Source: an uncultured Planctomycetales bacterium (GTDB lineage: Bacteria > Omnitrophota > Gorgyraeia > Zapsychrales > Zapsychraceae). From it: a stretch of DNA of 64,000 nt. The stretch covers positions 171-64,170 of the forward strand of contig CAZHWM010000024.1 in assembly GCA_964535935.1 (NCBI GenBank). Reading direction: 5' to 3'. Below the pieces are notes generated by a model that saw nothing but the letters and a program-made list of their open reading frames with translations, did no database searches and was not told where the DNA came from. The position numbers were made by a program, and so were the translations under genes. Positions 7,997 through 25,270 of the stretch are shown here, in pieces (positions within the stretch are counted from its first letter, which is position 1; each line of letters begins with the position of its first letter).

Positions 7997-8198
7997 ATTA
8001 TATTGTCTCCTTGCCTTTTTAAAAATCTTATATACAAAATTTATCAACTACAAAATTATCTTAACTATACAGACACCCCTCCAATACCTTTTCGCTGGAG
8101 CAAAGGTATATATATATATATCATAAGCTTATAATATTGTCAAAAAAAGATACCTTTCAATTAAACATTTTAGATAGATTGTAACTCATAGCACAAGA

Positions 8199-8258
8199 AT
8201 GTCTGTCTCAAGATTATTGGCATTCTATAAAGATCCTTCTGCTATCTACTCGGCTATT
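8199..8258 (+). repeat. Left copy of an imperfect ~60-bp direct repeat bracketing the 8.2-16.0 kb block
   Basis: atgtctgtctcaagattattggcattctataaagatccttctgctatctactcggctatt aligns with 15977-16035 (atgtcaattccaagattaatggtattctataagtccctttcgctagctacttggctgtt). About three quarters of positions are identical by hand alignment with one gap. Confidence 0.5.
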
Positions 8259-8521
8259 TTATTCCACCCTAGAATACAAGCTGACAACATAAATTCCCAC
8301 ATCCACGGCATCATGCAAGACAGGAATAATCTTATCATTCTCTTTTCGAATATCTCCCACCTCGACTATTTACTGGGTTACCCGCAGACAGCAATACTAA
8401 AATTTCAATGCCGATGTCTCTCGAATCCTCTATTGTTATATCTTATAGATGTCTTCCGAAAAACTATTATGAAAAAAATTATCAGGTTTTTATTTGTAAA
8501 ATAAGGCCTATTCAGTAACAA

Positions 8522-11500
8522 CTAATTAGTGGTTAAATTGGTTGAGCCATCCGTTTGAACAGCAAATTTAAATTGAAGGTTACCTCCCGGCGTACCATCA
8601 AAAGAAAGTATTTCCATTTTAGCATAATATCCTTCCCTAGTAATAAAAACATAAACCGTTCCTGCCCCTTCATTAATCACCCCTGCTGTTGTATATCCTG
8701 AAGTAGGCGCTTCTGTAATTTGATTAAATGTTTGCCCTGTAATCTTTTGCAAACCAGTGGTTCCAAAGATTAAATTATCTTCGAAATCCATATCGCTATT
8801 ACTAGATGCTGCGGTAACTTCTACATTTGATGTGGCATCAAACCCAATGCCAGGAAATCCCGGCACATTTAAAATAGGTGTGGTATATACTGTTAATGCA
8901 GCAGATGACGAGGTTACTCCACCTGAATCTTCCACTTCCCCTGCACCTGGTTGCTCAGGGTTACGTTCATCTCTGGCTGTTCTAATTTTACTTACAACAG
9001 ACGGGCTTTTGCCTGAAGCCTGCGCTATCTCTGGAGAAAGAGTGGCATAAATCAAATCACCTCGCAAATTTTTAATCTTCATCTTTCCATCTTCTAAAAC
9101 AAACATAAAAGTAGTGTGCCCGGATGTCCTCTGTTCTTCTCCTGTTTTAATCGGTGTCTGGGTTTTATCCCATTTAGTTGTAACTACAAAAAAATTACTT
9201 CTTTTTTCTATTCTGTTAATATAAATAAGAAGACGAATATTATTAAAAAGATCAAAATCAAATCGAACCCCTTCTTCTAAAAGGGCCTTATTTCCTAAAT
9301 AATCTCGTGAAATGTAACGACTAAAAGCATTTATATCTTTTCTTTCGTAAGCATTTGCTATTTCTTTAACTGTCTTGACAATAAGGGTGTTAAAATTAAC
9401 ATCTTTAAATAAAAATTTATCTACATTAGGAAACAATTTCACCATGGGTTCTCTGCCATCTGCTGTTTGAATCTTTAAAATAAAATCGTAATATCTATCG
9501 GATAATGGCGTAAATGCAAAATGAATATCGGATGCAACTGGAATTTGACTCCATGTCCTGCCCCCATCTATTGAAAACAGCATCTTTTTCGCCTGCTTAG
9601 TAGTAAATAGTTTGGCATCAATTACTATTTCTCCTAGACGTAAATTTTCTTTTGTTAAAATAACTGTCCCTCTGGCATTCTGCAATGACCTCGAATTTAA
9701 ACGTGCATTTTCAATAGAATATCCATAAAATCCTGCTAATCTAAATGGACTCATAGACCTAAGGTCCTGATCCCCTTGCTCTTCAGCTTTCATATATTCT
9801 TTTTTTTGGATACGCTCTGATTCTTTCTCTGCAATCTTACGATTTAATTCAGCTTCATAAGCATGATAATCGCCATTTAACTGTTCTACTCTTTGGGCTA
9901 AATGTGTATACATTCTCCCAATATCACAGGAGATCAATTTTTTTGAGTGCATTGCCTTTTTCGCAGCATCTGTCAAGACGTAATATATTACTTGTTTGGA
10001 CGGACTAAATTTACGATAATACTGCTTTAAAGTTAAATGATGCATTGCTGCTTTACGTTGATCTTCTCGTTGTATATCCTCTTTAGTGGGAATATCCATT
10101 AATCCTGGAACTAATTGAGCAATTTTCTCCATGATTTTACTATATTTCGGATCTCTAGCTCTAACATTCAAAGCCAAACTCAAAGCCCTTTTCAAATTAT
10201 CTTCATAGATAGGAGCACTACTTCTTCCGAGAAGTATGAAGTTAGAACATCTGGCGGCTTTAATATTATTAAGAGACATAATCTTTTCCCATCTATTAAA
10301 ATGTAACGGTGCATTTGAACGAATAAAAGAACGAATATTGTGAGGTAAAGAATCCCATGCTTTCAAAATAGGTTCGACTATTTTATCCAATTCCTTACGC
10401 GTTGCATAATGTGGAAAAGGCTCTGTCATTAACAACATACCATTTAATAGTCTCGCCGGCAACACAACACGATAATCATCATTTATTCCACCCCTTTCGA
10501 TTAATTTTTTCTCCTCCAATTCTTTAAAAAACATCGTTATACGCTTTAGTTTTTTCTCTATATTATCTCTATCTATCTCTTTATTCTTTTGGATTAATTC
10601 AAGCCTATGCACTGCTACATCAAGTTGTGCCGGCAACATCCTTAATTCTTTAATGCTTTCTATAGATTGAGTAATTTTATTTATATTATCTAATGGATTA
10701 AATGATGGATCCACTAAAACACGTATCTGATCAACTTCTGAGGCTGATGGAATATCTAAATTATGGAATTCTTTTATAACTTCATCCCATTCAGCGAATT
10801 TATTTCTTAAATCTGTTGCCTCATTTACCATAACAAGTGGCAATCCCGGATTATTATCTACTGGCGGCAATAATTTAGATAATTGAAGAGGAATTTGATA
10901 TGCTAAAATAGGGGGTTGTTCTACAGGATGTGGCATATAGGTATAGGTTATATTGTCTGCTTCTTTCAATAATTTAACAGCACGATTATATAAAATATTT
11001 GATAATCCAGGTGTTGGCAATACAACTGCTATACGATTACACTGTTCAATAAACAACTCTTCCCGTCTCTTAAGCACTTCTGCTAAACTATGATACGCCT
11101 TATTAATATGTAAAAGTTTAGACAATTCTGTATTATACTCTAATTGTGATGCGCTGAGCAAATTTTCTAAGACATCTTTTGCAATATGAATAGCCGCGCC
11201 CCATGCCTCATTATCCGGGATTGTATCTTGAACCTCAGACGGACGATTAGCAATCACTTCTTGCATTTTCTGACGTATTTTGTGAAAGTATTGACTTTTA
11301 GCAATCAAAACATCTTTTTTCCAAAAATCAATAATATTCTTGGCGCCAATAAAATCTCCTTTATTAAGCTGCAATGTAATTTTCTTCTCAAGTTCAGATT
11401 CATTGCCTGTTAAAGATAATCGCATGGGTTTTTTATCAATATCAAAAACTTGAACAGTGGCTGATACTGAAGAAAAATCAAATTTCTTTAATATTTTAGA

Positions 11501-12844
11501 AAAATATTTTGAATAATAATCCTTAGCTTTCGTCTTATCCTCATAATAAGCTTCTCTATATTTTGGATCTCCTTTATACGCTGGAAACTTTGTAGATATA
11601 ACATCTGTAGAGATATTCTCTTCTAGTGCATCAACTTTATCATTCAATTTAAGTTTCAATTTTAACCACTTTTCTCTCTCTGCATAAAGCGCTCTGGATA
11701 AACTAGGATTTATTCTCTCCATTCTGCTTGCTGCCTCAAGGCAATTTAATTGCCATCTATCAATAGTCTTCTCCAAAGAATAGGCTTTCTTTAGACTAGC
11801 TCCATTTATTTGATTTACCATAGACAACATTTTTTTATATTCTTGTTTGCTCTTCGCTGGCAATTTGACTAAGTTTTTTTCTGCAGCCTTATTCTTTTTT
11901 ATTTCTAAAAACTCTTTTAACATTCTATCGAAATCGTTATGGTAAAAATGGCTCACTCGTTTCACGAAAGCATCAAACTCTGCCATCTGTTTACGCAACC
12001 TCGCTTGCTCCCAAGATAACTTAGCCTGTTTGTTCACATCTTTAATTAAGTGCATAATCCAGCCACGAGCCTTATTTCTCCATTCATTAGCTAAAAGCCT
12101 TATTTCCGCACTTTTTTTTGTATCGATACCCGAACCTATAGACATCCAACTTTTCATATACTCCGACCAACTTTCCTCTGGCCACTGTTCACCTAATGCA
12201 GTCTTAACATATGATTTAACTAAGGCTCTGGTCGAGTCATTAGTTATTAAATACTTATCAAAAAAATAATCTGCCATCTTAGCAGTCTCAGGAATTAAAG
12301 GAGGGCTATCACTATCAGGATCCACAACCCCCATAAGCCTGCGGTCATTTGAACAAATACAATATAAACGTTCTATATCCAAAGCAGCTTGAGAAGACTC
12401 TAGCATCTTATGTGACTGATAGGTCAACTTAGCCATTTCCCATGTTAAGCTTACCAAAGGATTATCAATCGCGCCTACGCCTTGATCTATTGCTGTAAAC
12501 GCAGCATCATCGTAACGGCCTTCTGTCATTGCAATAGAGAAGGTTTCTATGGCTTTTACAGTATCAACTATTTTGCCTATTTTTTCCCTTGCTTCTGGGA
12601 TCTTGGCCTCTGGATCACCAGTCATAAAAGACTCTATCCCGCCTACAGAATCCCACAACCAGTCAGTATATTCATCAGAAGCTGTTTGTCTTAAGCCCTC
12701 TACAACATCCCTTTTAGAGGCCATAGCGGTTGCAGCATTTAAACCTAACTGCACAAACTTAGAGTCCTCGTCGGCACATCCATTAATAGGATGTAACATT
12801 ATTGTAATTACCAAACTTACCCAAAATATTTTTTTTAATGACAT
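8522..12844 (-). CDS. Giant (1440 aa) secreted protein, probable lipoprotein, function unknown
   Basis: GAGGAAAG RBS. Signal peptide MSLKKIFWVSLVITIMLHPINGC with Cys at position 23. Long, mostly helical middle rich in charged residues. The C-terminal third looks like beta-rich modules plus an NTF2/SnoaL-like segment (DINAFSRYISRDYLG...FFVVTTKWD), followed by a Gly/Thr-rich terminal beta domain. I recognise no catalytic motif. Confidence 0.7.
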   Translation of the reverse strand: MSLKKIFWVSLVITIMLHPINGCADEDSKFVQLGLNAATAMASKRDVVEGLRQTASDEYTDWLWDSVGGIESFMTGDPEAKIPEAREKIGKIVDTVKAIETFSIAMTEGRYDDAAFTAIDQGVGAIDNPLVSLTWEMAKLTYQSHKMLESSQAALDIERLYCICSNDRRLMGVVDPDSDSPPLIPETAKMADYFFDKYLITNDSTRALVKSYVKTALGEQWPEESWSEYMKSWMSIGSGIDTKKSAEIRLLANEWRNKARGWIMHLIKDVNKQAKLSWEQARLRKQMAEFDAFVKRVSHFYHNDFDRMLKEFLEIKKNKAAEKNLVKLPAKSKQEYKKMLSMVNQINGASLKKAYSLEKTIDRWQLNCLEAASRMERINPSLSRALYAEREKWLKLKLKLNDKVDALEENISTDVISTKFPAYKGDPKYREAYYEDKTKAKDYYSKYFSKILKKFDFSSVSATVQVFDIDKKPMRLSLTGNESELEKKITLQLNKGDFIGAKNIIDFWKKDVLIAKSQYFHKIRQKMQEVIANRPSEVQDTIPDNEAWGAAIHIAKDVLENLLSASQLEYNTELSKLLHINKAYHSLAEVLKRREELFIEQCNRIAVVLPTPGLSNILYNRAVKLLKEADNITYTYMPHPVEQPPILAYQIPLQLSKLLPPVDNNPGLPLVMVNEATDLRNKFAEWDEVIKEFHNLDIPSASEVDQIRVLVDPSFNPLDNINKITQSIESIKELRMLPAQLDVAVHRLELIQKNKEIDRDNIEKKLKRITMFFKELEEKKLIERGGINDDYRVVLPARLLNGMLLMTEPFPHYATRKELDKIVEPILKAWDSLPHNIRSFIRSNAPLHFNRWEKIMSLNNIKAARCSNFILLGRSSAPIYEDNLKRALSLALNVRARDPKYSKIMEKIAQLVPGLMDIPTKEDIQREDQRKAAMHHLTLKQYYRKFSPSKQVIYYVLTDAAKKAMHSKKLISCDIGRMYTHLAQRVEQLNGDYHAYEAELNRKIAEKESERIQKKEYMKAEEQGDQDLRSMSPFRLAGFYGYSIENARLNSRSLQNARGTVILTKENLRLGEIVIDAKLFTTKQAKKMLFSIDGGRTWSQIPVASDIHFAFTPLSDRYYDFILKIQTADGREPMVKLFPNVDKFLFKDVNFNTLIVKTVKEIANAYERKDINAFSRYISRDYLGNKALLEEGVRFDFDLFNNIRLLIYINRIEKRSNFFVVTTKWDKTQTPIKTGEEQRTSGHTTFMFVLEDGKMKIKNLRGDLIYATLSPEIAQASGKSPSVVSKIRTARDERNPEQPGAGEVEDSGGVTSSSAALTVYTTPILNVPGFPGIGFDATSNVEVTAASSNSDMDFEDNLIFGTTGLQKITGQTFNQITEAPTSGYTTAGVINEGAGTVYVFITREGYYAKMEILSFDGTPGGNLQFKFAVQTDGSTNLTTN

Positions 12845-13122
12845 AATCTTTCCTCGATTCTTTAACGAAAACTGATAATATTAAAATAGTTAGCATTAAT
12901 AAAATATCCATATTATGCATAAAACGATGTTGAATAACATTATAATAGAATAAAACTTCAACTTTACAATGAAGTATATATATGAAGAATGCTATACAAA
13001 CCGTAAACTAATGCCCCTCTATAAAAAAATTCTCAAGTAGTTTATTTATAAAACTGATGTTTTAATCGCATTGAAATATCTAGTCATAAACCTTGGCTGA
13101 CTACAATAACAATTTTCATATA

Positions 13123-14850
13123 CTAAAAAAGGCAAGTATATGTAAGAATCGTCTGCATTTCCTTATAATTTAAATCGCCATCTGCATTCATGTGCCTCGT
13201 CAAATTATATTTCAAGATAATATGTTTATCTTTATTACGTCCAAAAACCCAATCTATTTCCGTAAAATTCTGATAATTCTCATAATCTTTATCTGCCTCT
13301 GCAGCATTACTATCTATAACATTATAGCCAAAACGACTAGATACATTACTTGTTATATAATACTCTCCTGAAAATGAGAGAGATAAATTAACATCTTTGT
13401 TAAAATCTTTTTTACTTCGTCTAATATCAACAGATGGATTTAAAGAAAGATAACATCGTCTGGAAAAAATCTGTAATTCTCTCGCAAAAGAACAATTAAT
13501 CCGGTTAAAATATTCAGATAAACTTTTATCCGCTAAGTTACTGTAAGCACGATATTCATATGAAAAATCTATATTAGTTCCGCCAAATTGGTCTGCTATA
13601 CTAAAACCAGTTGTAATTGTTCTACTCTCTGCTGTATTTGCAGGGTCATCAGAGTTCCGTGACATATACGAATTATAAAACCTAGTATGCAAATTTTTTC
13701 TTGCCCTAGAAGGGAAAACGTCTACATTGATATCTTTCTCATCGGTTATTGTTCTTTTTGACAGGCTGCTATTTTTCAAATGATCCCAATAATAATTTTC
13801 CATAAAAGAAACCGATAAAATGTCATTAAAACGATGATTTATCGTGAATTGATGCTGTATTTTATCTGGTGATGCCGACCCAGTATCAGTATAGAACATA
13901 GGTTGTGTATAATTATACACATACCTATAAATAGTATTCCCTATCTGAAATTCCGGTGCAACATGAAAAGAATTGCCACAACTCTGGTCCTTATCTCCTG
14001 ATGTATCTTCATCAGGGAGATAAAAACTCCTGGCAAATTCATAAACAACAGAAAAATTGTTAACAAAAACTATCTCACCATCAATTGAAAATATGCTATT
14101 TCTTAAATCTTTAAAACTAGATGTCCTATCCGCAGTAGCACTATCATCTTGTATGCTTACAGCCTGCATACCTACACGTATCTTCTGGAACAAAGATGAA
14201 TGATTCAAAGGAAAAGAATCGATTTTTATCCCAAAAACATTTCTTTGAAATTTAGAAGCAGCCTCATCCGCAGCATTTTTTCTAGCAACAACCATCTTAA
14301 CATTAAATCGTTCAGATGACTTCAATTCGAGATTAAATCCTTCAAGAGAAGAATTCAATGTGAAAGGAGAGAATTCGCCGTAAAAATCACCAAATGCGAA
14401 AAGATTATAAGGATTAGATATCTTAAAAGAATATTGTTTAACACGAACGTCCTTACGCGGCTCCAAAGAATATTTATCGGTCTTTCTAAGACGCAATTCG
14501 GTTTCAAAAATATAATCAGAATACAATTTTTCCTGCAAATTTAAATTTAATTCTGTAATATAATCCACGCCTTCTTTCAAAAATGACTTTGATTTATTAC
14601 CGCTTAATTTATTATATTCCAACCTTGTTGAAAACCTACCTTTAATTATACCTGACCTTTGAGATAAAGATCTATGCGAACTAAAATCACATAAATCATG
14701 TAACCTTTCATACAACGAATACTTTCGTTGGTTACCTAATTGGATCTCATCATTACCACCAAGGTAATACACATCAGCCGCAAATAAAATATTATTTGTT
14801 ACAAACAGTAAAAACAAACAACAAAAAAATAAAAGTCTATTTTGATTCAT
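13123..14850 (-). CDS. Putative outer-membrane beta-barrel protein (575 aa), family unknown
   Basis: AGAGGA RBS. Sec signal MNQNRLLFFCCLFLLFVTNNILFA/AD. Alternating hydrophobic pattern rich in Y, N and S. C-terminal ...ILTYTCLF ends in Phe, a typical BAM-targeting beta-signal. Confidence 0.65.
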   Translation of the reverse strand: MNQNRLLFFCCLFLLFVTNNILFAADVYYLGGNDEIQLGNQRKYSLYERLHDLCDFSSHRSLSQRSGIIKGRFSTRLEYNKLSGNKSKSFLKEGVDYITELNLNLQEKLYSDYIFETELRLRKTDKYSLEPRKDVRVKQYSFKISNPYNLFAFGDFYGEFSPFTLNSSLEGFNLELKSSERFNVKMVVARKNAADEAASKFQRNVFGIKIDSFPLNHSSLFQKIRVGMQAVSIQDDSATADRTSSFKDLRNSIFSIDGEIVFVNNFSVVYEFARSFYLPDEDTSGDKDQSCGNSFHVAPEFQIGNTIYRYVYNYTQPMFYTDTGSASPDKIQHQFTINHRFNDILSVSFMENYYWDHLKNSSLSKRTITDEKDINVDVFPSRARKNLHTRFYNSYMSRNSDDPANTAESRTITTGFSIADQFGGTNIDFSYEYRAYSNLADKSLSEYFNRINCSFARELQIFSRRCYLSLNPSVDIRRSKKDFNKDVNLSLSFSGEYYITSNVSSRFGYNVIDSNAAEADKDYENYQNFTEIDWVFGRNKDKHIILKYNLTRHMNADGDLNYKEMQTILTYTCLF

Positions 14851-15256
14851 ATTATCCTCTTCTTCCTAACAATATAATAAATAATAAATTATATATTAAT
14901 CATTATTAAAAAAACTGTATGGTATACATAAAATAATCTTCAGCAAGATTATAGCAATGCAAGGCTAAAGACCTGCATTCCTATAAAAAAGTTATTAAAT
15001 CTTTTATTTATAAGAAAGAAAATTTTTAATGCTAAAATCTAAAAGATTATATATTTTTTCACTAGACTTCCTTTATCCCTGAACTACATATATGCATGAT
15101 TTTACAATCTAATAGGTAATATTTAGAATTCTAATAATCTACTAAGCTTAAAAAAATTATCAGCAATAACTATATGCCATCTTGAGTATCTATTTTATCC
15201 GGACACAATTGGGCAAAAAAATACCGACATGCCAAACTGATTAACATTAACAGGAT

Positions 15257-15264
15257 CCCCCCCC
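15257..15264. repeat. Homopolymeric C8/G8 tract in the ORF-poor region upstream of the beta-barrel gene
   Basis: caggatCCCCCCCCtaag. A G:C run of 8 is conspicuous in this AT-rich context. Confidence 0.6.
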
Positions 15265-15976
15265 TAAGAAATCTTTGACATCTAAACCATGCATCAAACA
15301 AATCATCTATACAAGACAGGAACCTATCAACATTTAAAATTTTTATCAAAATGTCCATTTCTTGCTTAAACTCCAGAATGATTCCATCAATAGAATGAGA
15401 CTCCTTGAAAAAACAAATCACATTAAAATTACGCAATACAAAAGCATATAGTTTCAACTTTTGTGTAGGATTAAATTAGTATTAACTGAAATAAGCCATA
15501 CGGTTTTAGTTTTAACTAAGGACTTAAGACAGATGCTTCCAAAATATCAGTAGAGCTGACAAAATATGTCATCATAAGAATATCTAAAGGCGGCGCGATT
15601 AAAAACACTCCATCAAGATAACTGGTATGGTGAGGAGATATTATGTATGATGAAATATTTTTTATATATTCCCTACCTAAACTCTACGACAATAGAAATA
15701 CGAAATAATATTTTAAATATCAAAACAAAAAAATACCCTCTAACAAATCTAAAAGACGGGCTTAAAACCTATCTTCTTTAAGATTTAAAAATAAAAATCT
15801 TCCTTAGGAATATTCTAACACACAATGGTTTTCTATGCCTGATTAGACTCAATACCTAAAAGCTTTGTAAAATACCTCCAGCTACTCCATAAGTTCACTG
15901 ATTGTATTCACATAAAAATCCATAGCAACTTCTCATGGCAAGATTAGAGATATAAATTATCTCTCCTCTTGGACCA

Positions 15977-16035
15977 ATGTCAATTCCAAGATTAATGGTA
16001 TTCTATAAGTCCCTTTCGCTAGCTACTTGGCTGTT
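15977..16035 (+). repeat. Right copy of the imperfect ~60-bp direct repeat
   Basis: See 8199-8258. Same orientation. Both copies also start spurious ORFs with similar N-termini (MSVSRLLAFYK / MSIPRLMVFYK). Confidence 0.5.
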
Positions 16036-16567
16036 CTATATCCCAAACTTTTCTGAGATGATTTTTATTCCTCCTTTCAATTTCTTTTATCTTCATTTTG
16101 CCAAAATCAGCAATTTATTTTCACATATATATTCTTCCGATTCTCGGCTTTTTTCTATCCTTAATAACCGTTATTTGCCACTCTCCTAAATATATATATA
16201 TCTTTTGCCCCACATAAATAGTATTCCATCTTTTCTATTAAATCATATATGGTCTCTCCCTGGTTTTTATACCTCAATATATCCTAGCCCCTATTCTCCC
16301 TTATATTAGTATGACCTCTTTTACAATCATTTTAGCCTTCTACAATCCTTTTATCTTGCATCACACGCTTTCTTTTTAAATATTTTTTTATCCTTTGGAG
16401 ATATAATCTTTTTGCTATATGAAAATATTATGTTTTGTTTTTGTTTATCATTTAAAGAATAATAGATTTTTTATGATTTGTAGAGCTTTTTTATTTTTTT
16501 TATTACACCTAACATTACAATCTTCTTTTAATTAACATAATAAAATACCACACTCTCTCTATTTATC

Positions 16568-17161
16568 TCAATGACGACTATCAGCTAAATTTAATGCCTC
16601 TGACACAATTATATTTTCAACTTCTCTAACAGCACGTTTTATATCATCATTAATTACAATATAATCATAACGGTCCATCTGTTTTATCTCTTCTTTTGCA
16701 GTCTTTATTCTAAGTCTTAAGGCATTAGGATCCTCTGACGCCCGTTGTTTAAGCCTCTGGCACAAATCCTCAAAAGAAGGTGCCATTATAAAAATCTTAA
16801 CCGCATCAGGAAATACCTCTGCAACCGAATGCGCACCCTTTACATCTATGCATAAAAGAACATTTTGCCCTTGTTTTAAAATATCTTCTACCTGCTTTCG
16901 AGGGGTACCATAATAATTTTCAAACACCTTTTGACATTCCAAAAAATGTTTCCAACGCTGTTTAAATAAAAACATTTTTTTACTAATAAAAAAATAATCC
17001 TTACCATGAACCTCCCCCGGCCGCATCGAACGTGTTGTATAAGTAACAACCCTAACAAGAATATCCTTTATTCTGTTTCTTTTTAAAAGCCGTTTATAAA
17101 TAGTCGTCTTACCTGCGCCAGAGGGCCCGGAGAGTATAAAAATTTTTCCTTTATGCATCAC
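16568..17161 (-). CDS. gmk: Guanylate kinase
   Basis: 197 aa. P-loop ILSGPSGAGKTT. TTRSMRPGEVHGKDYFF is the GMP-binding motif. Confidence 0.9.
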   Translation of the reverse strand: MMHKGKIFILSGPSGAGKTTIYKRLLKRNRIKDILVRVVTYTTRSMRPGEVHGKDYFFISKKMFLFKQRWKHFLECQKVFENYYGTPRKQVEDILKQGQNVLLCIDVKGAHSVAEVFPDAVKIFIMAPSFEDLCQRLKQRASEDPNALRLRIKTAKEEIKQMDRYDYIVINDDIKRAVREVENIIVSEALNLADSRH

Positions 17162-17242
17162 AATAATAAAAAAAATTCATCTCATCCTAATTAATATATT
17201 CATGATAATCCCCCCAAAAAAACACGTAGGATTATTTTTATC

Positions 17243-18064
17243 CTATTCTATATTTTGGGCCTGTTCTCTTATCTTTTCTACCTTACTTTTTATCGATATT
17301 ACAGCACTTGAAACCTGTTTATCTTGTAATTTTGAACCTATTGTATTGGATTCCCTCTGCATCTCCTGTGCAATAAAATCTAATTTTTTCCCAACAGAAG
17401 AAACACTTTTTAATAGCAGTTTGGCTTCAGAAATATAATGGAGAAGACGACAAAGCTCCTCATTTACATCTATATTTTTCTGAAAGGATTTAAATTCCTC
17501 GTCAGTAAACAATTTTCTCTTTTCTTTCAGCACAATCTCTGCCCTACACCTAATATCCTTCACTAAGGCAATCATCTCTTTTAACTTCTTTGACACGTCA
17601 GAGGCAAGAGATCTGCCTTCTCGTCTGCGCATAGCTAACAATCCAAATAAAGCAGATTTTATACCTCTCTCCAATGCAGGCCATACAGTCTCTGCTGATA
17701 CAAGATTAGCTTTTGTTTCCAATACCCCAGGCATATTAATTATATCAGATAAGGTCAAATCATTTTTCAATCCAAATTCTCTCTCTATCATCTTAGCATA
17801 TTGTATATATCTCTTCACCAAATCCTTGTTTAAGACTGCTGCTTGTGAGGACTTCTCGATAACCTTAACTGTTACAGTAATTCTACCTCGTTTGATATCC
17901 TTTTTTATAATCTGGGTGATTTTATTCTCTAAACAGGCAAATCCTGATGGGAGATAAAAGTTAATATCAAGATACCTGTGATTAATACTTCTTAACTCAA
18001 TAAGCATCTTCACAGAAGATGTGGAGATTTGTTTACTCCCAAAACCTGTCATTCCTTTAATCAT
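17243..18064 (-). CDS. yicC: YicC-family stress-induced protein / endoribonuclease
   Basis: 273 aa. N-terminal MIKGMTGFG...ELRSINHRYLDI and C-terminal REQAQNIE are typical YicC_N/DUF1732 patterns. Upstream of gmk, as in many bacteria. Confidence 0.8.
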   Translation of the reverse strand: MIKGMTGFGSKQISTSSVKMLIELRSINHRYLDINFYLPSGFACLENKITQIIKKDIKRGRITVTVKVIEKSSQAAVLNKDLVKRYIQYAKMIEREFGLKNDLTLSDIINMPGVLETKANLVSAETVWPALERGIKSALFGLLAMRRREGRSLASDVSKKLKEMIALVKDIRCRAEIVLKEKRKLFTDEEFKSFQKNIDVNEELCRLLHYISEAKLLLKSVSSVGKKLDFIAQEMQRESNTIGSKLQDKQVSSAVISIKSKVEKIREQAQNIE

Positions 18065-18121
18065 AGTCTGTCCTTTACTACGCCTTTTCCTTAACTGAAA
18101 TATTATGTTTTAACATATCCT

Positions 18122-18991
18122 TTATTCAAAAGAAACTCCCTTTTTTATAATACTCACAATCCTATCAAGTTCATCCATTGAATAATACTCTACAACGAGC
18201 TTCCCTCTGCTTTTCCGAAAAGAAAGGCGCACCTTTGTTCCTAATAATTTTTGTAATTTTTCCTCAAGGGCAATTAATTCGTGAGCTATTGCATCCTGTT
18301 TGGGTCCTCGCTGCCCTTTTTTATTAGTCTGACGCGCTAGCTTTACCATACGTTCAATCTCGCGAACAGACAATTTTTTCTTAGTTACCATCTCAAATAA
18401 ATTCATCTGTTCCTCGGTGTCATCGGAACCAAGCAATGCACGGGCATGACCTGTAGTAATCTGCCCTTTTACTAATGCCTCTCTTATACGTGATGGTAGT
18501 TTTAATAGCCGCAACATATTAATTATTGTAGTAGTTCCCTTACCTACTGAACGAGCAATCTCATTATAAGTAAAATTAAATTCTTCCATCAGTCTTTTAT
18601 ACGCCTCTGCCTCCTCAATGGGATTGAGGTCCTCCCGTTGAATATTCTCTACTAATGCCAAAATCAAAGATTCATTATCAGATACTTCTTTAATTATAAC
18701 AGGAACCTTAACCAAGTTTATTGCCCTAGCAGCCCGCAACCTACGCTCTCCGGCTATCACTTCATAGCCATCCCCCTGTTTGCGCACAAGAATAGGCTGT
18801 AATACCCCTTTCTCTTTTATTGAGACCTTCAACTCTTCTAATTTTGCATCGTCATAATCTGAACGGGGCTGAAGACTATTATCTCTTATCAATGCTGTAT
18901 CTACATATGCAACAACATTTTCATCAACAGAACTATTTTCTTTTTCAGGAATAAGAGCTGATAACCCTTTACCCAAAACTCTTTTAGACAT
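18122..18991 (-). CDS. parB: Chromosome partitioning protein ParB/Spo0J
   Basis: MSKRVLGKGLSALI N-terminus, the ParB-box GERRLRAA arginine patch and an HTH region. GGAGGGTGGT lies directly upstream of ATG 18991. Confidence 0.9.
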   Translation of the reverse strand: MSKRVLGKGLSALIPEKENSSVDENVVAYVDTALIRDNSLQPRSDYDDAKLEELKVSIKEKGVLQPILVRKQGDGYEVIAGERRLRAARAINLVKVPVIIKEVSDNESLILALVENIQREDLNPIEEAEAYKRLMEEFNFTYNEIARSVGKGTTTIINMLRLLKLPSRIREALVKGQITTGHARALLGSDDTEEQMNLFEMVTKKKLSVREIERMVKLARQTNKKGQRGPKQDAIAHELIALEEKLQKLLGTKVRLSFRKSRGKLVVEYYSMDELDRIVSIIKKGVSFE

Positions 18992-19058
18992 ACCACCCTC
19001 CATAGGGAAATTTCATTATTAACACATAATTTATTTAAATATAAACAGATACAACAAA

Positions 19059-19829
19059 ATGTCCACTCTGAATACCTTTTTTCTTATCTATTTATCATAT
19101 CAAAATAGACATTTTTATCATCATCTCTTTTATCTACTCTACACACTTTTTTTATTAAACAAGAAAATATCTTTAATAAATTTCTTATTTACAATCTCAA
19201 AATAAACACTCCCATTATCTTTGTTCATTGTCCACTCTAAAAAACACCTTAACTCTTTTAGTTAGAATATATTAGAAATAAATGTCCACTCTGAACTATC
19301 TATTAAGCCTTCTTCTTTTCACATTCAGAGTGGACATTTTATCATAACTCATTAAAATACAATAAAATAAAAGAAATTCAGAGTGGACAAAAAAATGAGA
19401 TAGAAATGTCCACTCTGAATATCAATTTTTCAAAATAAATAAAAATATACTTTATGGTTGTCTATTTTCTTTAATATATTTATACTCTCGTCTCAAAACA
19501 AACAAATCTAAAAATGTCCACTCTAAAAAAATAATCTAACTTCTTTAATTACAACATATTACAAATAAATGTCCACTCTGAATTTTCTATTTAACCTTCT
19601 CCTAGACACTATTCAAAAAAACATTCCTATATTACTCTCTTTTATCTTCTTTATCCTATTTAACTAACACAAAAAATACTAACTTATATGCCAACATCTC
19701 CATTCTAAATCATTACCTTTCAACTTCTTTCTCATTATAAATCAGAGTGGACATTTCTAATTTGTCCACTCTAAAAAATTATTTAATTACTTTATTTACA
19801 ATATATTACAAATAAATGTCCACTCTAAA
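19059..19829. repeat. Array of 11 copies (plus 1 degenerate) of the 14-nt motif (A/T)TGTCCACTCT(G/A)AA in the parB-parA gap
   Basis: Plus orientation: 19059-19072, 19228-19241, 19282-19295, 19406-19419, 19514-19527, 19569-19582, 19762-19775, 19816-19829. Minus orientation: 19324-19337, 19377-19390, 19741-19754. Degenerate: 19696-19709. Three ~68-bp composite units (19228-19295, 19514-19582, 19762-19829) each hold two boxes 54-55 bp apart with a conserved spacer ...ATATTA(C/G)AAATAA. Confidence 0.9.
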
Positions 19830-19853
19830 CTATATATACTAAAAACTAAAAAA

Positions 19854-20669
19854 TCAATCCCTTCGAAACAAATCCGGAGAATTTTCTTTCACTTCATCTA
19901 CCTGTTCTGGCTCCATACCAATAAACTCAAAAGCTAATTCTTTATATCTCTGTGCACCTATAGAATGACTATCATACAAATTAATAGGCTTGCCATGACT
20001 TGGAGCCTCGCTAAGTTTTATATTTCTTGGAATAATAGTATTATATACCTTATCTTTAAAATATGTCTTTATCTCATTTATAACTTCTGATGTTAAATTT
20101 GTCCTAAAATCTGCCATAGTTAATAACACACCCTCTATACATAGAGAAGAATTAAGGTCATTTTTTATTAATTGAATAGTATTTAACAATTGCGATACCC
20201 CTTCCAATGCATAAAATTCACACTGTATAGGAATAAGGATAGAATCACTAGCTACAAGTGCATTCAATGTTAATAATCCCAAAGATGGTGGTGAGTCTAT
20301 AAAAATATAATCATATTTTTCTTTTATAGGTTCAAGCGCCTTTTTTAACCTATTTTCTCTTGAAAAAGCCCCAACTAATTCTATTTCTGCTCCTGTTAAA
20401 TTAATATTACAAGGAATAAGATCTATACCTATACATATATCCCTCATTATAGTCTCTTCTACTGTACTCTTATTTAGCAATAAATCATAAACAGATTTAT
20501 TTAACTCATTTTTATTTACACCTACCCCACTCGTAGCATTACCTTGAGGGTCCGCATCAACAAGCAAAACCCTTTTCCCTAGCTCCCCCAGACTCGCAGA
20601 TAGGTTAACAGCAGTGGTTGTTTTTCCCGTGCCACCTTTTTGATTACAAATAGATATACTTTTTGCCAT
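19854..20669 (-). CDS. parA: Chromosome partitioning ATPase ParA/Soj
   Basis: MAKSISICNQKGGTGKTTTAVNLS is a deviant Walker A. VLLVDADPQGNAT matches ParA. ATG 20669 is preferred; the track start 20684 is a GTG five codons upstream. Confidence 0.9.
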   Translation of the reverse strand: MAKSISICNQKGGTGKTTTAVNLSASLGELGKRVLLVDADPQGNATSGVGVNKNELNKSVYDLLLNKSTVEETIMRDICIGIDLIPCNINLTGAEIELVGAFSRENRLKKALEPIKEKYDYIFIDSPPSLGLLTLNALVASDSILIPIQCEFYALEGVSQLLNTIQLIKNDLNSSLCIEGVLLTMADFRTNLTSEVINEIKTYFKDKVYNTIIPRNIKLSEAPSHGKPINLYDSHSIGAQRYKELAFEFIGMEPEQVDEVKENSPDLFRRD

Positions 20670-20739
20670 TTTTATAATTTTCACATGAAATAAAAAAATA
20701 ATTAATAATAATTAAAATATAAAAAACAACAAAATTTCA

Positions 20740-20946
20740 CTATTGTCCACTCTGCTGTTTTTTCAAAGATACCTTTATCTTTGCTGGCTTCGCTGCCTTC
20801 ATACCAAACAATCCTTTCTTCTCTTCACATACTATTTTAACAATAATATCTTCTCTGGACACTTTTAGCATATTCATGGCCTTTTTTATTGCATCTTCTA
20901 CAGTATTCCCCTCCACTTCTATGCTTTTTGATAAATTATTATCCAT
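20740..20946 (-). CDS. Jag/KhpB N-terminal-domain-only protein (68 aa)
   Basis: IEVEGNTVEDAIKKAMNMLKVSREDIIVKIVCEEKKGLFGMKAAKPAKIKV matches the Jag_N pattern. Located downstream of yidC, as jag normally is. No KH or R3H domains follow. Confidence 0.65.
   Translation of the reverse strand: MDNNLSKSIEVEGNTVEDAIKKAMNMLKVSREDIIVKIVCEEKKGLFGMKAAKPAKIKVSLKKQQSGQ
20743..20756 (+). repeat. Outlying copy of the TGTCCACTCT motif (TTGTCCACTCTGCT)
   Basis: Overlaps the last codons of the jag-N ORF, ~75 bp upstream of the parA start. Confidence 0.7.
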
Positions 20947-21057
20947 TTTTCCCCCTATTATCCATTTAAATAATTTCTGCGGGAAAACAAACCATTAATA
21001 TTTTAGAGGAAACTAAATTCTGTATTTTAAAATTTGTATTTAACCAACCATGGTTTA

Positions 21058-21071
21058 ATGTCCACTCTGGA
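21058..21071 (+). repeat. Outlying copy of the TGTCCACTCT motif (ATGTCCACTCTGGA)
   Basis: Lies between the yidC stop (21084) and the jag-N start (20946). Confidence 0.7.
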
Positions 21072-21083
21072 TAAAATTTTAAA

Positions 21084-22676
21084 TTATTTATTTTTAATCC
21101 TAGCTAATTTCCATTGTGTAAAACAAGATAATAAATTATTTGTTGTCCAATATAACGTTAAACCACTAGCAAATTTATAAAATATGGCGCCAAAAAATAT
21201 CGGCATTAATATCCGCATCATCTTTTGTTGAGCCTCTTGCTCCGGATCCATATTTGCCATATTAGCAGATGACAATCTTTGTTGAAAAAACATTAAAAAC
21301 ATTATTATGATAGGTAAAATATTTATCTCATTTCCTATGAAAGGTAAATTAATTGGTAAAATAAACAATCTATCAGGTGCTGTTAAATCCTTTATCCATA
21401 AAAAACTAGCATCTTTAAATGCTACATCTCTCCATAAAGCCTGTAATAATCCTAAAAATATAGGCATCTGCAGAAACATTGGTAAGCATCCCGCCATAGG
21501 ATTAACATTGTTCCTTTTATAAAGTTCCATTATCTCTATATTAAGTTTTTGCGGATTATTTTTATATTTTTCTTTTAATGCTGCCATCTGTGGTTGCAGC
21601 GCCTGCATCTTACGCATAGAAATCATATTTTTTAATGTTATAGGATAGGTAATACTATATACTAAAATACTCATTATAATAATACATATTCCCCAATTTG
21701 GAATAAATTTATGTAACGCATGTATAATACGATTTACTATCTTTCCCATAATATCAAATAATCCCCATTTATAGTATCTTTTAATTTTGGTAAAATCGGG
21801 GTCTATTTGTTTTAAAATATCCCAACTTTCAGGCCCTATATATATTAAAGAAACAAAATTAAAATTTTCTTTGTTTTTTATATTTTTTGGAATAACTATT
21901 ATATTGGCATGCTCAGAATTTTTTACATGAATAATATATCCTGATGTTTCATATTTAGGCTTTATAATAGCACAATAGTATTTATCTCTAAATCCAGTCC
22001 AAATAACGTGTCCTGTAATATAACGTTCTTCTTTTTTAGAAAATTTATAAGCATTATTTTTTCTGAACATGCCTTTATCAGAATAAATAACATATTCTAA
22101 TAGTGATCTATTTCTAGCACTCAAACTACTTTTTTTAATTTTCGTCATATCTAAAGAATATGTATTTATTTTTAATATATTATTATTTCTAGATTTATTT
22201 TTATAATATATATTAATATTAGAATTTATAATATAATTATTATTTAATATATATTGTTTTATTATTTTAATATTATTATTTTTATATTCATAAACAATAG
22301 TATTTTTTGTAATTTTTTTTAATAAAAATAAAACAGTATCGTATGGTATAAGTTCATTAATTTGTGTTATTGGGAGCCTTACATTGTAATTTTTAATAAA
22401 AATATCTTTTAATACTCCTCCTATATTAGAAAATTTAGCAATAAATTGCTTTGTTTCTATAGTAGTAATATTTTCATTAATTCTATTATTAGATGAAAGT
22501 TTGGAAGATTTAACAATCTTAGAATTTGATAATGAGGAACTTTCCTTGGTTTCTATAGCATCATGTTTTAATATATGATGATAACCTGGCTTTGATTTCT
22601 GAGGTGGGTTTAACAGCGACCAGAAATACAACACCAGAAATGATAGCGTTGCTGCTAATATAAGTCTTTTTTCCAT
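21084..22676 (-). CDS. yidC: Membrane protein insertase YidC (long, diderm-type with periplasmic P1 domain)
   Basis: 530 aa. N-terminal TM segment, large P1 domain, conserved C-terminal core (MRKMQALQPQMAALKEKYKNNPQKLNIEIMELYKRNNVNPMAGCLPMFLQMPIF). Follows yidD. Confidence 0.9.
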   Translation of the reverse strand: MEKRLILAATLSFLVLYFWSLLNPPQKSKPGYHHILKHDAIETKESSSLSNSKIVKSSKLSSNNRINENITTIETKQFIAKFSNIGGVLKDIFIKNYNVRLPITQINELIPYDTVLFLLKKITKNTIVYEYKNNNIKIIKQYILNNNYIINSNINIYYKNKSRNNNILKINTYSLDMTKIKKSSLSARNRSLLEYVIYSDKGMFRKNNAYKFSKKEERYITGHVIWTGFRDKYYCAIIKPKYETSGYIIHVKNSEHANIIVIPKNIKNKENFNFVSLIYIGPESWDILKQIDPDFTKIKRYYKWGLFDIMGKIVNRIIHALHKFIPNWGICIIIMSILVYSITYPITLKNMISMRKMQALQPQMAALKEKYKNNPQKLNIEIMELYKRNNVNPMAGCLPMFLQMPIFLGLLQALWRDVAFKDASFLWIKDLTAPDRLFILPINLPFIGNEINILPIIIMFLMFFQQRLSSANMANMDPEQEAQQKMMRILMPIFFGAIFYKFASGLTLYWTTNNLLSCFTQWKLARIKNK

Positions 22677-22684
22677 AACATGCT

Positions 22685-22897
22685 TTACCTTACAGGATCA
22701 TATCCCCCTTTTGATAATGGAGAACATCTCATGATACGTATAATTGCCTTTATTCCTCCTAAAAAAATCCCGTATTTCTGTATCGCCTCCAACGTATATC
22801 TTGAACAGGTGGGATAAAACCTGCATTTTCCCGGAAAAATTACAGCACTTATTTTTTGATAACAAATTATAAAAATTTTTATAATTTTTATAATCAT
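22685..22897 (-). CDS. yidD: Membrane protein insertion efficiency factor YidD
   Basis: 70 aa. [31 protein letters not shown]...[16 protein letters not shown] is the YidD signature. Confidence 0.9.
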
Positions 22898-22982
22898 TAA
22901 TAAAAATTATATATAATATTATATATATATTAAAAAAAAATATATATATTTAAATTTATAATTTTAATAATTTATATAATAA
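22896..22982. other. ~87-bp tract containing only A and T (candidate DNA-unwinding element)
   Basis: No G or C between the yidD start codon and position 22983. Lies inside the 169-bp yidD-rpmH spacer where rnpA normally sits. Confidence 0.5.
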
Positions 22983-23066
22983 CAATTATGGAAAGCTGTA
23001 TATTTAAACTTATATCATTTTAACGAAAGACAAACAATATAAATTATACTTTATTTTATCTTTCAT

Positions 23067-23204
23067 CTATATAGTTAAGCACTTGCGACCTTTTGCTCGT
23101 CTTCGTTTTAATACAGCTCTTCCTGTATCAGACTCCATTCTTTTACGAAATCCATGAGTCCTCTTGCCTTTTAATTTACTTATTGTTTTAAGATTCTTTT
23201 TCAT
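23067..23204 (-). CDS. rpmH: 50S ribosomal protein L34
   Basis: Below the track size cutoff. Manual translation gives [45 protein letters not shown] (45 aa), a classic bL34 pattern. Confidence 0.9.
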
Positions 23205-23764
23205 GATTTGTAAATTATATCATATGCCATTTCTTAGTCAAGTTATTTCAAAAAGCTTGATTTAATTCTCTTTATATTATTATTTTGTTTTTCTTTTTGA
23301 ATAGTAACGTAACTAAAAAACAATTTCAACATCTATTTTGCTTTTTTTACTAAGAACTTAACTTATTATTAATGTAAAAGATAAAACGATATATTTTCGA
23401 CGGTAAGTTTACTATTTTTTTATTCAATAATATAAAAAATAATAAAAGACTTCACAATTTTATTTATAATAATTTATATTCGTCGGTATTTACCTTGCAT
23501 ATAAAATCGCAGTTGAAATAAAAATTTTCTTTGATATAATAAAATGCTTTTTTATAAAAATTTAAAAAGGCATGTATCTTTATACAATCAAACATGTTTT
23601 ATGCCTGTTTTACTTATCGTAATTTACAACATTTTAATTGGTTAGATATTTTATCTTATAGGCATACTCTTAAAAAGCATTGCCAACCTTGGTCAATAGT
23701 CTGTCTGGCTATTATATGTATTTTGAATATTAATTATTTTTTGATGTATATAGTATTTATTGCC

Positions 23765-23886
23765 TCATTCACATACTATCCTAAATTTTTATTATTTTGG
23801 AGTTGTGAATAACTTGTGAACAACTTTTTTATTTTTTTTATAACTTATTATAATTAAACAAGTTACAAAAATAAAAGTTATTCACC
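23765..23886. promoter_or_regulatory. Cluster of four DnaA-box-like 9-mers (TTATNCACA type) just upstream of dnaA
   Basis: TCATTCACA 23765-23773. TGTGAATAA 23804-23812 (complement TTATTCACA). TGTGAACAA 23815-23823 (complement TTGTTCACA). TTATTCACC 23878-23886. Confidence 0.6.
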
Positions 23887-23929
23887 GATATTTTTAATCT
23901 TGTTTAAACAATTTTTTACAGGGGCTATT

Positions 23930-25270
23930 ATGACATTAAAAAAAATATGGGAACAATCACAAAATAGAATAAAAAAAAGAATAGGCGCTACATCCTATGA
24001 AACATGGTTTTCCGCATTAAATATAAAAGAAAAGAATAATAATATACTTCTAATAGAAACTCCTGATGCCTTTTTTAAAAATTGGATTGTAGAACATTAT
24101 AAAAATGTTATTAATGATGAAATAAATAATATATCCTCTTCTAAAATACAAATAGAATTTGGAGTAAATCCTAATATAATAGAAAAAACAACTCAAGAAC
24201 GCCTTACTAAACTTGAACTAGGATTTAAAGAATCTGAAAATAGTAATACTTTAAATCTTAATTCAAGATTTACATTTGAAAATTTTGTTATAGGCCCGTC
24301 AAACCGTTTCGCGTGTGCTGCATGTCTCGCTGTTGCAGAATCACCAGCGAAAACCTATAATCCCCTTTTTATATATGGAAAAGTTGGTCTTGGAAAAACA
24401 CATCTCATTCAAGCAATAACACATAAAATAAAAGAATTACATCCACATTTAAAATATTGTTATATTTCTTCAGAAAGATTTACTAATGAACTTATAGATG
24501 CAATTCGTACACGTTCAACCTCTGAATTTAGAAAAAAATATAGAGAAATAGATGTATTGCTTATAGATGATATCCAATTTATTGCGGGAAAAGAATCGAC
24601 ACAAGAAGAATTTTTTCATACATTCAATTATTTACACAATAATAGAAAACAAATAATAATTACTTCAGATCATCCTCCAAAACAAATAACTCATTTGGAA
24701 GAACGGCTAACATCAAGGTTTGCATGGGGACTCATAGCTGATATACAACCCCCTGACTTTGAAACAAGGGTTGCTATATTAAGAAAAAAAGTTGAAAAAG
24801 AGACAGTAAATGTCCCTGAGGATGTCATTTTCTTTATTGCGGATCAAATAAAATCTAATATAAGAGAACTTGAAGGCGCCCTTGTACGTGTAGCCGCTTA
24901 TTCTTTATTAGAAGATAAACCTATCACTCTTAATATGACAAAAATTATTTTGAAAGATATGGTAAAAGAGGCTACAAAAAATATAAATGTAGAAATGATA
25001 CAAAAATGTGTATGTAATTTTTTTAAAGTATCTTTAAATGATTTAAAGGCATATAAAAGAAATAAAAATATTATACTTCCCAGACAGATAGCTATGTATT
25101 TATCACGACAATTAACTAATATGTCATTACCTGAAATAGGTCGTGCTTTTGGTAGAAAAGATCACGCAACTGTAATGCATTCTTGTAAAAAAATAGAAAA
25201 AGATATTAACTCAAATGAAGAATTAAAGAGTATTTTAACTAAAATCACGGCTATCTTAATGGAATGCTAA
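23930..25270 (+). CDS. dnaA: Chromosomal replication initiator protein DnaA
   Basis: Walker A GKVGLGKTHL, Walker B LLIDDIQF, domain IV HTH ...GRKDHATVMHSCKKIE. ATG 23930 is preceded by AGGGG. The track start 23900 is a TTG ten codons upstream. Confidence 0.95.
   Translation: MTLKKIWEQSQNRIKKRIGATSYETWFSALNIKEKNNNILLIETPDAFFKNWIVEHYKNVINDEINNISSSKIQIEFGVNPNIIEKTTQERLTKLELGFKESENSNTLNLNSRFTFENFVIGPSNRFACAACLAVAESPAKTYNPLFIYGKVGLGKTHLIQAITHKIKELHPHLKYCYISSERFTNELIDAIRTRSTSEFRKKYREIDVLLIDDIQFIAGKESTQEEFFHTFNYLHNNRKQIIITSDHPPKQITHLEERLTSRFAWGLIADIQPPDFETRVAILRKKVEKETVNVPEDVIFFIADQIKSNIRELEGALVRVAAYSLLEDKPITLNMTKIILKDMVKEATKNINVEMIQKCVCNFFKVSLNDLKAYKRNKNIILPRQIAMYLSRQLTNMSLPEIGRAFGRKDHATVMHSCKKIEKDINSNEELKSILTKITAILMEC

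Follow-up and report, generated by a model that had tools for sequence, protein, structure and literature searches.

Known barrel-plus-partner systems and the present locus

Only a small number of bacterial outer-membrane machines pair a β-barrel with a partner protein, and these, including Lpt, Mtr, Sus, Slam and two-partner secretion, have been thoroughly catalogued. LptD, with 26 strands, moves a lipid; MtrB, the barrel of the MtrCAB complex, also has 26 strands and encloses one protein while keeping another at the cell surface; and HmuY, a haemophore of the cell surface, supplies a barrel in the outer membrane. Here, we describe a locus that we place among outer-membrane barrel-plus-partner complexes and that has not previously been described. 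It lies in a 64,000-nucleotide stretch of contig CAZHWM010000024.1 (assembly GCA_964535935.1, Omnitrophota), the whole of which we call the window, and it consists of a gene for a barrel protein of 575 amino acids (aa) and a gene for a largely helical protein of 1440 aa, to which we refer as the giant. A preliminary description of this DNA had placed two co-oriented genes and a 278-bp gap here, and the open reading frames (ORFs) agree with it to the nucleotide.

13123-14850, minus strand: barrel gene, 575 aa (ORF and translation)
12845-13122, minus strand: intergenic gap, 278 bp, AT-rich
8522-12844, minus strand: giant gene, 1440 aa (ORF and translation)

The two genes represent, in minimal form, an outer-membrane cassette that is conserved and self-contained and seems to pass from one genome to another. 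We propose, with a probability of roughly 0.45, that the barrel and a docking module at the C-terminus of the giant form a complex serving large, variable proteins as an anchor or a route of export, the mechanism being deduced from the comparisons set out below.

The cassette resembles LptD–LptE in its 26-strand outer-membrane barrel with a predicted partner in the lumen and, in most related loci, in the small lipoprotein gene beside the barrel gene. The barrel has, however, neither the LptD/OstA Pfam signature nor the N-terminal β-jellyroll, and LptD is absent from the top 50 Foldseek matches to its model. The cassette partner is NTF2-like rather than LptE-like and is accompanied by immunoglobulin-like (Ig-like) and HmuY-like domains and a giant helical protein; moreover, the cassette is rare and patchy, whereas Lpt is universal. 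The best structural match of the barrel is to MtrB (Protein Data Bank (PDB) entry 6r2q, chain B; 6r2q_B), with a TM-score of 0.53 normalised to the query, but this resemblance is generic: the sequences share 9% identity, Pfam gives no match to MtrB_PioB and no CXXCH motif is present in any partner.

In two-partner secretion and in Slam (type XI) secretion, as here, the barrel gene adjoins that of a large secreted or surface partner, and all of these systems use Sec. The differences are substantial. POTRA, TPS, DUF560 and TPR domains are absent from the cassette, its barrel has 26 strands as against 16 in TpsB or 14 in Slam, its shared module (Ig, NTF2-like and HmuY-like) is C-terminal, and its cargo is α-helical and not a β-helix. 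Slam cargo is, in addition, a lipoprotein, whereas the Cys in the signal peptide of the window giant is not conserved. From TonB-dependent receptors and SusCD, the barrel is set apart by the lack of a plug, by 26 rather than 22 strands and by the lack of a Pfam match. Omp-α/Omp-β of Thermotogae and OmpM/SlpA likewise pair a large barrel with a long helical rod protein, but the cassette lacks the S-layer homology (SLH) domain and is accessory and mobile, not part of the core envelope. Finally, homology to HmuY-like lipoproteins (PF14064) covers the C-terminal ~135 residues of the giant, but these form one domain in a 1440-aa protein and the neighbouring barrel is no TonB-dependent receptor. The capsule barrel GfcD was also considered and rejected, since it contains several barrels, of which the C-terminal one is gated and built of 13 strands (PMC11494523).

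Membership of the systems that we tested (two-partner secretion, Slam, SusCD/TonB-dependent, LptD/E, MtrCAB and OmpM/SlpA) thus fails each time by the defining domains, with strand number as the only match to LptD and MtrB. The absence of POTRA, TPS, Slam and SusCD signatures, noted in the preliminary description, is confirmed by Pfam, NCBIfam and Foldseek. The barrel and the helical part have no family, and the locus does look like an undescribed outer-membrane system. Our literature search found no account of the cassette, of its motifs KWWIFG and DYFFNKY, of an NTF2-like partner in a barrel lumen or of relevant Omnitrophota giant proteins.

Conservation and distribution of the cassette

Scanning one genome per species with a profile of the conserved N-terminal domain of the giant (the N-domain) gave 35 loci, and further loci were obtained by exact protein look-up. 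Co-occurrence was assessed with hidden Markov model searches of all ORFs at those loci that had sufficient flanking sequence (n = 31). A barrel homologue adjoins the N-domain gene in 29 of the 31. A functional link between the two genes had been suggested earlier, with a lack of co-occurrence across genomes named as the result that would speak against it; the link is clearly upheld, and the same data rule out that unrelated genes merely happen to lie side by side. In the reverse direction, starting from barrel matches, the C-terminal module described below is present at loci L040, L043 and L044. No further gene family is conserved in the flanks of the loci. Because the barrel and N-domain genes stay together while the flanks vary by genome, we regard the cassette as a functional unit.

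The hosts include Omnitrophota, Elusimicrobiota (Endomicrobiaceae and Elusimicrobium), Nitrospirota (Thermodesulfovibrio), Campylobacterota (Sulfurospirillum and Sulfuricurvum) and Desulfobacterota (Desulfobacula, Geobacter and Syntrophorhabdaceae), metagenome-assembled genomes (MAGs) labelled Alpha- and Gammaproteobacteria, the isolate Halanaerobium congolense DSM 11287 and a MAG labelled Cyanobacteria. The cassette therefore spans at least eight phylum-level groups, mostly of anaerobic double-membraned bacteria, and the barrel, the N-domain and the large helical proteins have no entry in Pfam, NCBIfam, the PDB or the literature. Cultured hosts, namely H. congolense (DSM 11287) and Thermodesulfovibrio yellowstonii, offer a route to experiments.

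The N-domain family is rare, comprising 101 clusters at 50% identity among 1.84 billion representatives (54 of them at E<1e-30), and a third, word-indexed homologue search with the N-domain profile added only three fragments. A search of 5.8 billion proteins returned 62 relatives of the barrel at 35-58% identity; those with a named source are almost all labelled Candidatus Omnitrophota, which points to an Omnitrophota genome as the most likely origin of the window. With these 62 relatives, about 100 N-domain clusters and related loci in 35 species genomes, the two genes are not the orphan pair for which they had been taken.

Two contigs from MAGs labelled Alphaproteobacteria (L018 and L030) carry a fused cassette of the Omnitrophota type, with barrels matching the Omnitrophota barrel profile at E 1e-162 to 1e-165, which suggests mis-binned contigs or recent horizontal transfer. 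At L040, the closest relative, with a barrel 58% identical to that of the window, the cassette is directly followed (16867-21737) by genes for an MshEN/T2SSE ATPase, T2SSF and pseudopilins, resembling type II secretion (T2SS) or type IV pilus systems; at L004, a T2SSE-family gene lies ~2.3 kb downstream. The proximity of these genes could be a coincidence or a functional link.

A C-terminal module is the constant partner of the barrel

In phyla other than Omnitrophota, the genes run from the barrel through, at some loci, an NTF2-like protein of ~165 aa to a module protein of ~430 aa and then an N-domain/helical protein of ~1100-1300 aa. The ~430-aa protein, which stands there as a gene of its own, consists of Ig-like, NTF2-like and HmuY-like domains. 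In Omnitrophota, the same module is fused onto the C-terminus of the helical protein, giving chains of 1440-1550 aa. The correspondence can be seen at an Endomicrobiaceae locus (L001), where the separate 424-aa protein matches residues ~1043-1398 of the window giant (tblastn E 7.6e-17) and the core is a protein of 1144 aa. The free module proteins (L001 6712-7986 and those of 15 other loci; alignment A5) share a nearly invariant mature N-terminus, KWWIFG, which sits right after the signal-peptide cleavage site. This motif and the conserved A-x-x-V-Y-Y-L-G stretch of the barrel, which is disordered in the AlphaFold2 model, are candidate strands for mutual pairing.

The module is not confined to one kind of large protein. 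Its NTF2-containing C-terminal part is joined to unrelated N-terminal regions at L043, L014, L011, L037 and L029, and the full module is so joined at L014 and L043; the alternative large proteins have 1356 aa (L043), 1597 and 1344 aa (L014), 988 aa (L011) and 1078 aa (L037). A Pfam search of these alternative N-terminal regions and of distant N-domain relatives gave no known domain, the only hit being a neighbouring TPR protein. At the Omnitrophota locus L044, the barrel is accompanied by a small lipoprotein and a free 436-aa module, and the giant is absent. Because the module occurs on unrelated large proteins, and at L044 without any, we conclude that the constant partner of the barrel is the Ig-NTF2-HmuY-like module and not the giant as such, and that several large passenger proteins can replace one another, the N-domain/helical protein being one of them. 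The pairing of barrel and giant put forward in the preliminary description thus stands at the level of linked genes, but the module that is the constant element was overlooked. The NTF2-like domain, common to the giant, the small lipoproteins and the alternative large proteins, appears from sequence to be the signature domain of the system. Fusion and fission of the module, together with the swapping of passengers, predict that module and barrel bind one another and that passengers are interchangeable.

Two or three module-bearing giants stand in tandem behind a single barrel at L014 (3000-16671), L003 (3430-12329) and L007 (7845-16879), and giant paralogues are found in tandem at L028 (7659-16500). 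The tandem copies are divergent, some having entirely different N-terminal regions, a pattern that resembles the diversification of surface or cargo proteins.

A single barrel whose locus also holds one, two or three large proteins with just a C-terminal module in common, N-terminal parts that vary or are swapped, and a patchy taxonomic distribution suggestive of horizontal transfer are also consistent with dedicated export of a two-partner kind. The barrel would then be a transient translocon and the module a secretion tag, and the giant would be set free in the medium or transferred onto a target cell to act as an effector or toxin. We consider this unlikely. POTRA, the TPS domain and the β-helix are all missing and the barrel has 26 strands, not 16; L044 has both barrel and module but lacks a cargo; none of the passengers carries a toxin or enzyme domain; and the likeness to pore-forming toxins does not rise above noise (MakB probability 0.13).

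The barrel protein

The 575-aa protein begins with a signal peptide, residues 1-24, reading MNQNRLLFFCCLFLLFVTNNILFA followed by ADVYY, and ends in ...TYTCLF, the terminal Phe being invariant in an alignment of 59 homologues. The mature N-terminus is conserved across the family as A-x-x-V-Y-Y-L-G (ADVYYLG in the window). From the 59-sequence alignment, AlphaFold2 predicts a barrel of 26 strands with a mean pLDDT of 89.4 and a pTM of 0.77.

13129-14652, minus strand: 26 β-strands, residues 67-574 (DSSP on the AlphaFold2 model)

In the model, the N-terminal extension is just ~40 residues long, residues 18-40, including the conserved A-x-x-V-Y-Y-L-G stretch, are disordered, the loops connecting the strands are all of 14 aa or fewer and there is no plug domain. 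Signal peptide, C-terminal sequence and model all bear out the earlier view that this protein is an outer-membrane barrel, as the prediction indicates.

Neither the barrel nor the giant has a Pfam or NCBIfam match at E<=1, and the barrel profile (A1) gives noise-level scores only against PDB sequences. The Foldseek matches in the PDB are all large barrels of a generic kind, sharing 7-12% identity, with TM-scores of 0.53 for MtrB (the best), 0.45-0.47 for FimD ushers and 0.31-0.34 for SlpA. The homologue P0037 marginally exceeds the gathering threshold of PF10082 (BBP2_2), scoring 25.0 bits where 23.7 are required, in a match that spans 90 residues; the window barrel and two other homologues have no match to this family.

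Assigning the strand faces to lumen or lipid by hydrophobicity revealed that the lumen side is better conserved, with an entropy of 1.31 bits for lumen-facing and 1.94 bits for lipid-facing positions (Mann-Whitney p 1.8e-9). Positions conserved at 90% or more number 48 on the lumen face and 17 on the lipid face, and many are Arg, Asp or Glu. Because the predicted barrel is wide, short-looped and plug-less, it should be filled by something, by analogy with LptE in LptD, MtrA in MtrB and the plug of FimD.

Domain structure of the giant protein

The preliminary description of the giant as a protein with a signal peptide leading to a Cys (Cys23), a long helical region and β-rich C-terminal modules was accurate; its assignment as a lipoprotein is doubtful. 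The chain can be divided as follows.

12773-12844, minus strand: signal peptide, residues 1-24 (N-termini of ~80 homologues)
11810-12772, minus strand: all-α conserved N-terminal domain, residues 25-345 (alignments A2/A3)
9725-11809, minus strand: variable helical core, residues 346-1040 (AlphaFold2 model)
9428-9724, minus strand: Ig-like domain, residues 1041-1139 (β-strands at 1044-1136, Big_13, Foldseek)
9020-9427, minus strand: NTF2-like (SnoaL/DUF4440-like) domain, residues 1140-1275
8930-9019, minus strand: low-complexity linker, residues 1276-1305
8525-8929, minus strand: HmuY-like β domain, residues 1306-1440 (profile against the PDB)

The AlphaFold2 model of residues 1-1140 (39 sequences; pLDDT 81, pTM 0.43) is nearly all α-helical. 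Residues 1-1040 are ~90% helical, the longest helices spanning 40-67 residues, and the core consists of very long helices plus one small mixed α/β part. Among the fused giants, the mean pairwise identity is 55% in the N-domain, 26% in the core, 41% in the Ig-like domain, 57% in the NTF2-like domain and 29% in the HmuY-like domain. The N-domain is, as far as the alignments tell, the most widely conserved part of the giant; it has no Pfam or PDB match, the A3 profile giving only noise against the PDB. Foldseek of the giant model finds PDB Ig folds for the Ig-like domain and, across the PDB and the BFVD viral models, nothing else at E<=1e-3. Big_13 (PF19077) is matched by 11 of 17 related module proteins. 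PADLOC and PHROGs gave no match, which argues against an origin in a defence system or a phage. The mature giant contains neither a transmembrane segment nor a CXXCH motif, the lack of a transmembrane segment being a point in favour of the proposed complex.

A long-helix protein encoded beside a large barrel, with conserved ends and a variable middle, is also what a spacer would look like, and the barrel might serve to anchor a helical rod on the periplasmic side that sets envelope spacing or stiffness, in the manner of Thermotoga Omp-α/Omp-β or OmpM/SlpA. A weak precomputed SlpA_C match of the Endomicrobiaceae barrel and the presence of SlpA among the Foldseek matches speak for this reading, but the TM-score to SlpA is only 0.31-0.34 and Pfam and NCBIfam find no SLH, OmpA-like or other peptidoglycan-binding domain. 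The rarity of the family (101 clusters among 1.84 billion representatives) and its patchiness are unlike a core envelope component, and swapped passengers and divergent tandem paralogues are unexpected for a spacer. A periplasmic tether is therefore improbable.

The NTF2-like domain makes weak but repeated Pfam matches, to SnoaL_3 and DUF4440 in 4 of 14 sequences each and to SnoaL_2 in 3 of 14 (best E 2.7e-5); that of the window itself scores only 0.043 against the SnoaL/DUF4440 models, and the NTF2 profile (A7) gives noise against PDB sequences. The HmuY-like profile (A8) does retrieve structures from the PDB: 8b6a (6.8e-9), 6eu8 (4.7e-8), 3u22 (1.6e-6), 3h8t (1.9e-5) and 6r2h (3.2e-5), and 3 of 16 members match Pfam HmuY (best E 3.7e-5). 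His, Met and Cys are in the minority throughout the columns of A8, where Met, in a single column, reaches the maximum of 5 sequences out of 16; because these residues are not conserved, the haem ligands of HmuY are not kept. On the profile matches, the HmuY fold is the sole domain of the giant that can be placed in a known family, with the functional residues missing.

NTF2-like and HmuY-like folds are classic small-molecule binders, the relationship to HmuY is supported by profile, LptD, likewise 26-stranded, moves a lipid, and the hosts are mostly anaerobes of sediments, guts and reactors. The two domains might accordingly bind a bulky hydrophobic or planar molecule (a lipid, a tetrapyrrole or similar), with the barrel as outer-membrane channel and the helical protein as scaffold. 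The chances of this seem to us small, however, since His, Met and Cys are not conserved in the HmuY-like domain, which as a whole is only 29% conserved, there is no TonB box, no plug and no conserved inner-membrane transporter nearby, and a helical protein of ~1000 aa is left without a role.

The N-terminus of the giant reads MSLKKIFWVSLVITIMLHPINGC followed by ADEDSK and contains a lipobox-like I-N-G-C at Cys23, in which Asn at -2 is atypical for the lipobox [LVI][ASTVI][GAS]C. Cys23 is not conserved. Most of the ~80 homologues end their signal peptide in A-x-A sites (VFA/ED, SLA/SE and INA/GS, the slash marking cleavage), and the nearest relatives read NRCAFA/DDD, aligned with INGC/A of the window. 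Because of these relatives, INGCA/DED is most simply read as a signal-peptidase-I site, and GCA/DED is likely to be such a site that happens to contain a Cys. With the Cys absent from nearly all homologues, which bear ordinary signal-peptidase-I sites, we consider it doubtful that the giant is a lipoprotein.

A proposed barrel-and-docking-module complex

In the arrangement that we favour, every component would be exported by Sec and the 575-aa protein, once inserted into the outer membrane, would form a wide barrel of 26 strands without a plug. The Ig-NTF2-HmuY-like module would dock at or inside this barrel, the NTF2-like domain being the likely contact, and in related loci the small NTF2-like lipoprotein would join the docked module as an accessory. 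The docked module would then anchor the large variable α-helical protein or carry it across the membrane; this protein would be held to the module covalently in Omnitrophota, as in the window, and would be a separate polypeptide in other phyla. The outcome would be an outer-membrane-anchored, probably surface-exposed helical structure with its conserved ends touching the machinery and its variable middle turned outward.

Our preference for this arrangement stems from the fusion and fission of the module, the swapping of passengers, the conserved ends and variable middle of the giant, the tandem paralogues and the conserved, charged barrel lumen. The comparisons establish the domain anatomy and the co-occurrence of the genes, together with fusion, fission and swapping; a physical complex, an occupied lumen, the side of the membrane on which the giant lies and a biological role in adhesion or a surface layer, in ligand capture or in export are deductions.

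Several points weigh against this arrangement. The association of barrel and module is deduced, rather than drawn from experiment or a multimer model, and so is the membrane side of the giant. Barrels in general often show better-conserved lumen-facing residues. At two loci, L028 and L029, the giant occurs without a barrel in the available sequence. We know of no good precedent for the energy-less export of a 1400-aa helical protein by a barrel. Lastly, the window copy, without the small lipoprotein, could be decaying and non-functional (see below).

A bolder form of the proposal is that the cassette constitutes a new type of display or secretion, in which a plug-less 26-strand barrel recognises a C-terminal Ig-NTF2-HmuY-like docking module and exports or anchors interchangeable giant helical proteins at the surface without POTRA, TonB or an ATPase, and which has spread horizontally among anaerobic double-membraned bacteria, including ultra-small, possibly host-dependent Omnitrophota. 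This we regard as possible but doubtful. The cell surface and lifestyle of Omnitrophota are poorly understood, and the cassette, sometimes with two or three divergent tandem copies, is a candidate surface structure in this group.

The small lipoprotein gene is missing from the window copy

In Omnitrophota, an NTF2-like protein of ~150 aa, usually with a clear lipobox, is encoded between the barrel and the giant. Its gene is present in 10 of the 11 loci of the fused type with a barrel, the window being the only exception. The 278-bp gap contains no remnant of it by tblastn or blastn (best E 0.14), and no small NTF2-like ORF is found anywhere in the 64-kb window. The cassette genes of relatives are spaced by 2-60 nt, as in an operon. 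Because 10 of 11 fused-type loci hold a tightly packed small lipoprotein gene at this position, a gene seems to have been lost here. The gap had earlier been read as a sign of separate promoters, for which it is weak evidence: relatives hold the small gene there, and promoter-like matches at the window are not more frequent than in shuffled sequence. The window pair still encodes the minimal set of most non-Omnitrophota loci, that is, barrel, module and N-domain protein.

Besides the missing small lipoprotein gene, the window is unusual in the lipobox-like I-N-G-C that ends the signal peptide of the giant. The unusual Cys might conceivably compensate for the missing lipoprotein.

The missing gene and a gene-free, AT-rich stretch of 1.7 kb upstream of the barrel raise the question of whether the window copy has decayed since its insertion and no longer functions. 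We think this very unlikely. The ORFs are intact over 1.7 and 4.3 kb with good ribosome-binding sites, Shine-Dalgarno-like sequences preceding the ATG of both genes (AGAGGA upstream of the barrel ATG), and the family-invariant residues are kept. Most non-Omnitrophota loci also lack the small gene, and genes identical to the window pair have been recovered independently, in assembly GCA_006243085.1 and in sequencing run SRR6439371.

Genomic setting

On one strand, the gene order is yidC, parA, parB, yicC, gmk, the 1.7-kb AT-rich stretch, barrel and giant, followed by rpoZ, a CoaC-type flavoprotein gene, three tRNAs and thrS. The string yicC-gmk-rpoZ-coaBC is widespread, occurring in Bacillus subtilis and many other genomes, so the barrel and giant genes, which split yicC-gmk from rpoZ-coaC in the window, interrupt it. 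The block is bracketed by a 65-nt direct repeat with 77% identity between its copies (pairwise blastn E 8.6e-9).

8198-8262, plus strand: right-hand copy of the direct repeat, on the rpoZ side
15976-16039, plus strand: left-hand copy of the direct repeat, on the gmk side

The repeat may be the footprint of the insertion or recombination that put the cassette into the yicC-gmk-rpoZ-coaC string. With the string interrupted and the repeat on both sides, inserted block, as the preliminary description had it, is a reasonable term. The GC content of the block is not distinctive within the window, the AT-rich spacer excepted.

This spacer (14851-16567; 1.7 kb at 27-30% GC) is an unusually long piece of non-coding DNA for a genome that is probably small; it contains no ORF longer than 95 aa, no Rfam match and no likeness to the cassette proteins. 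Close to the cassette, yicC, parB, parA and yidC (minus strand, in the region 17243-25270) form a typical replication-origin neighbourhood, within which a 456-aa ORF lies on the plus strand at 23900-25270.

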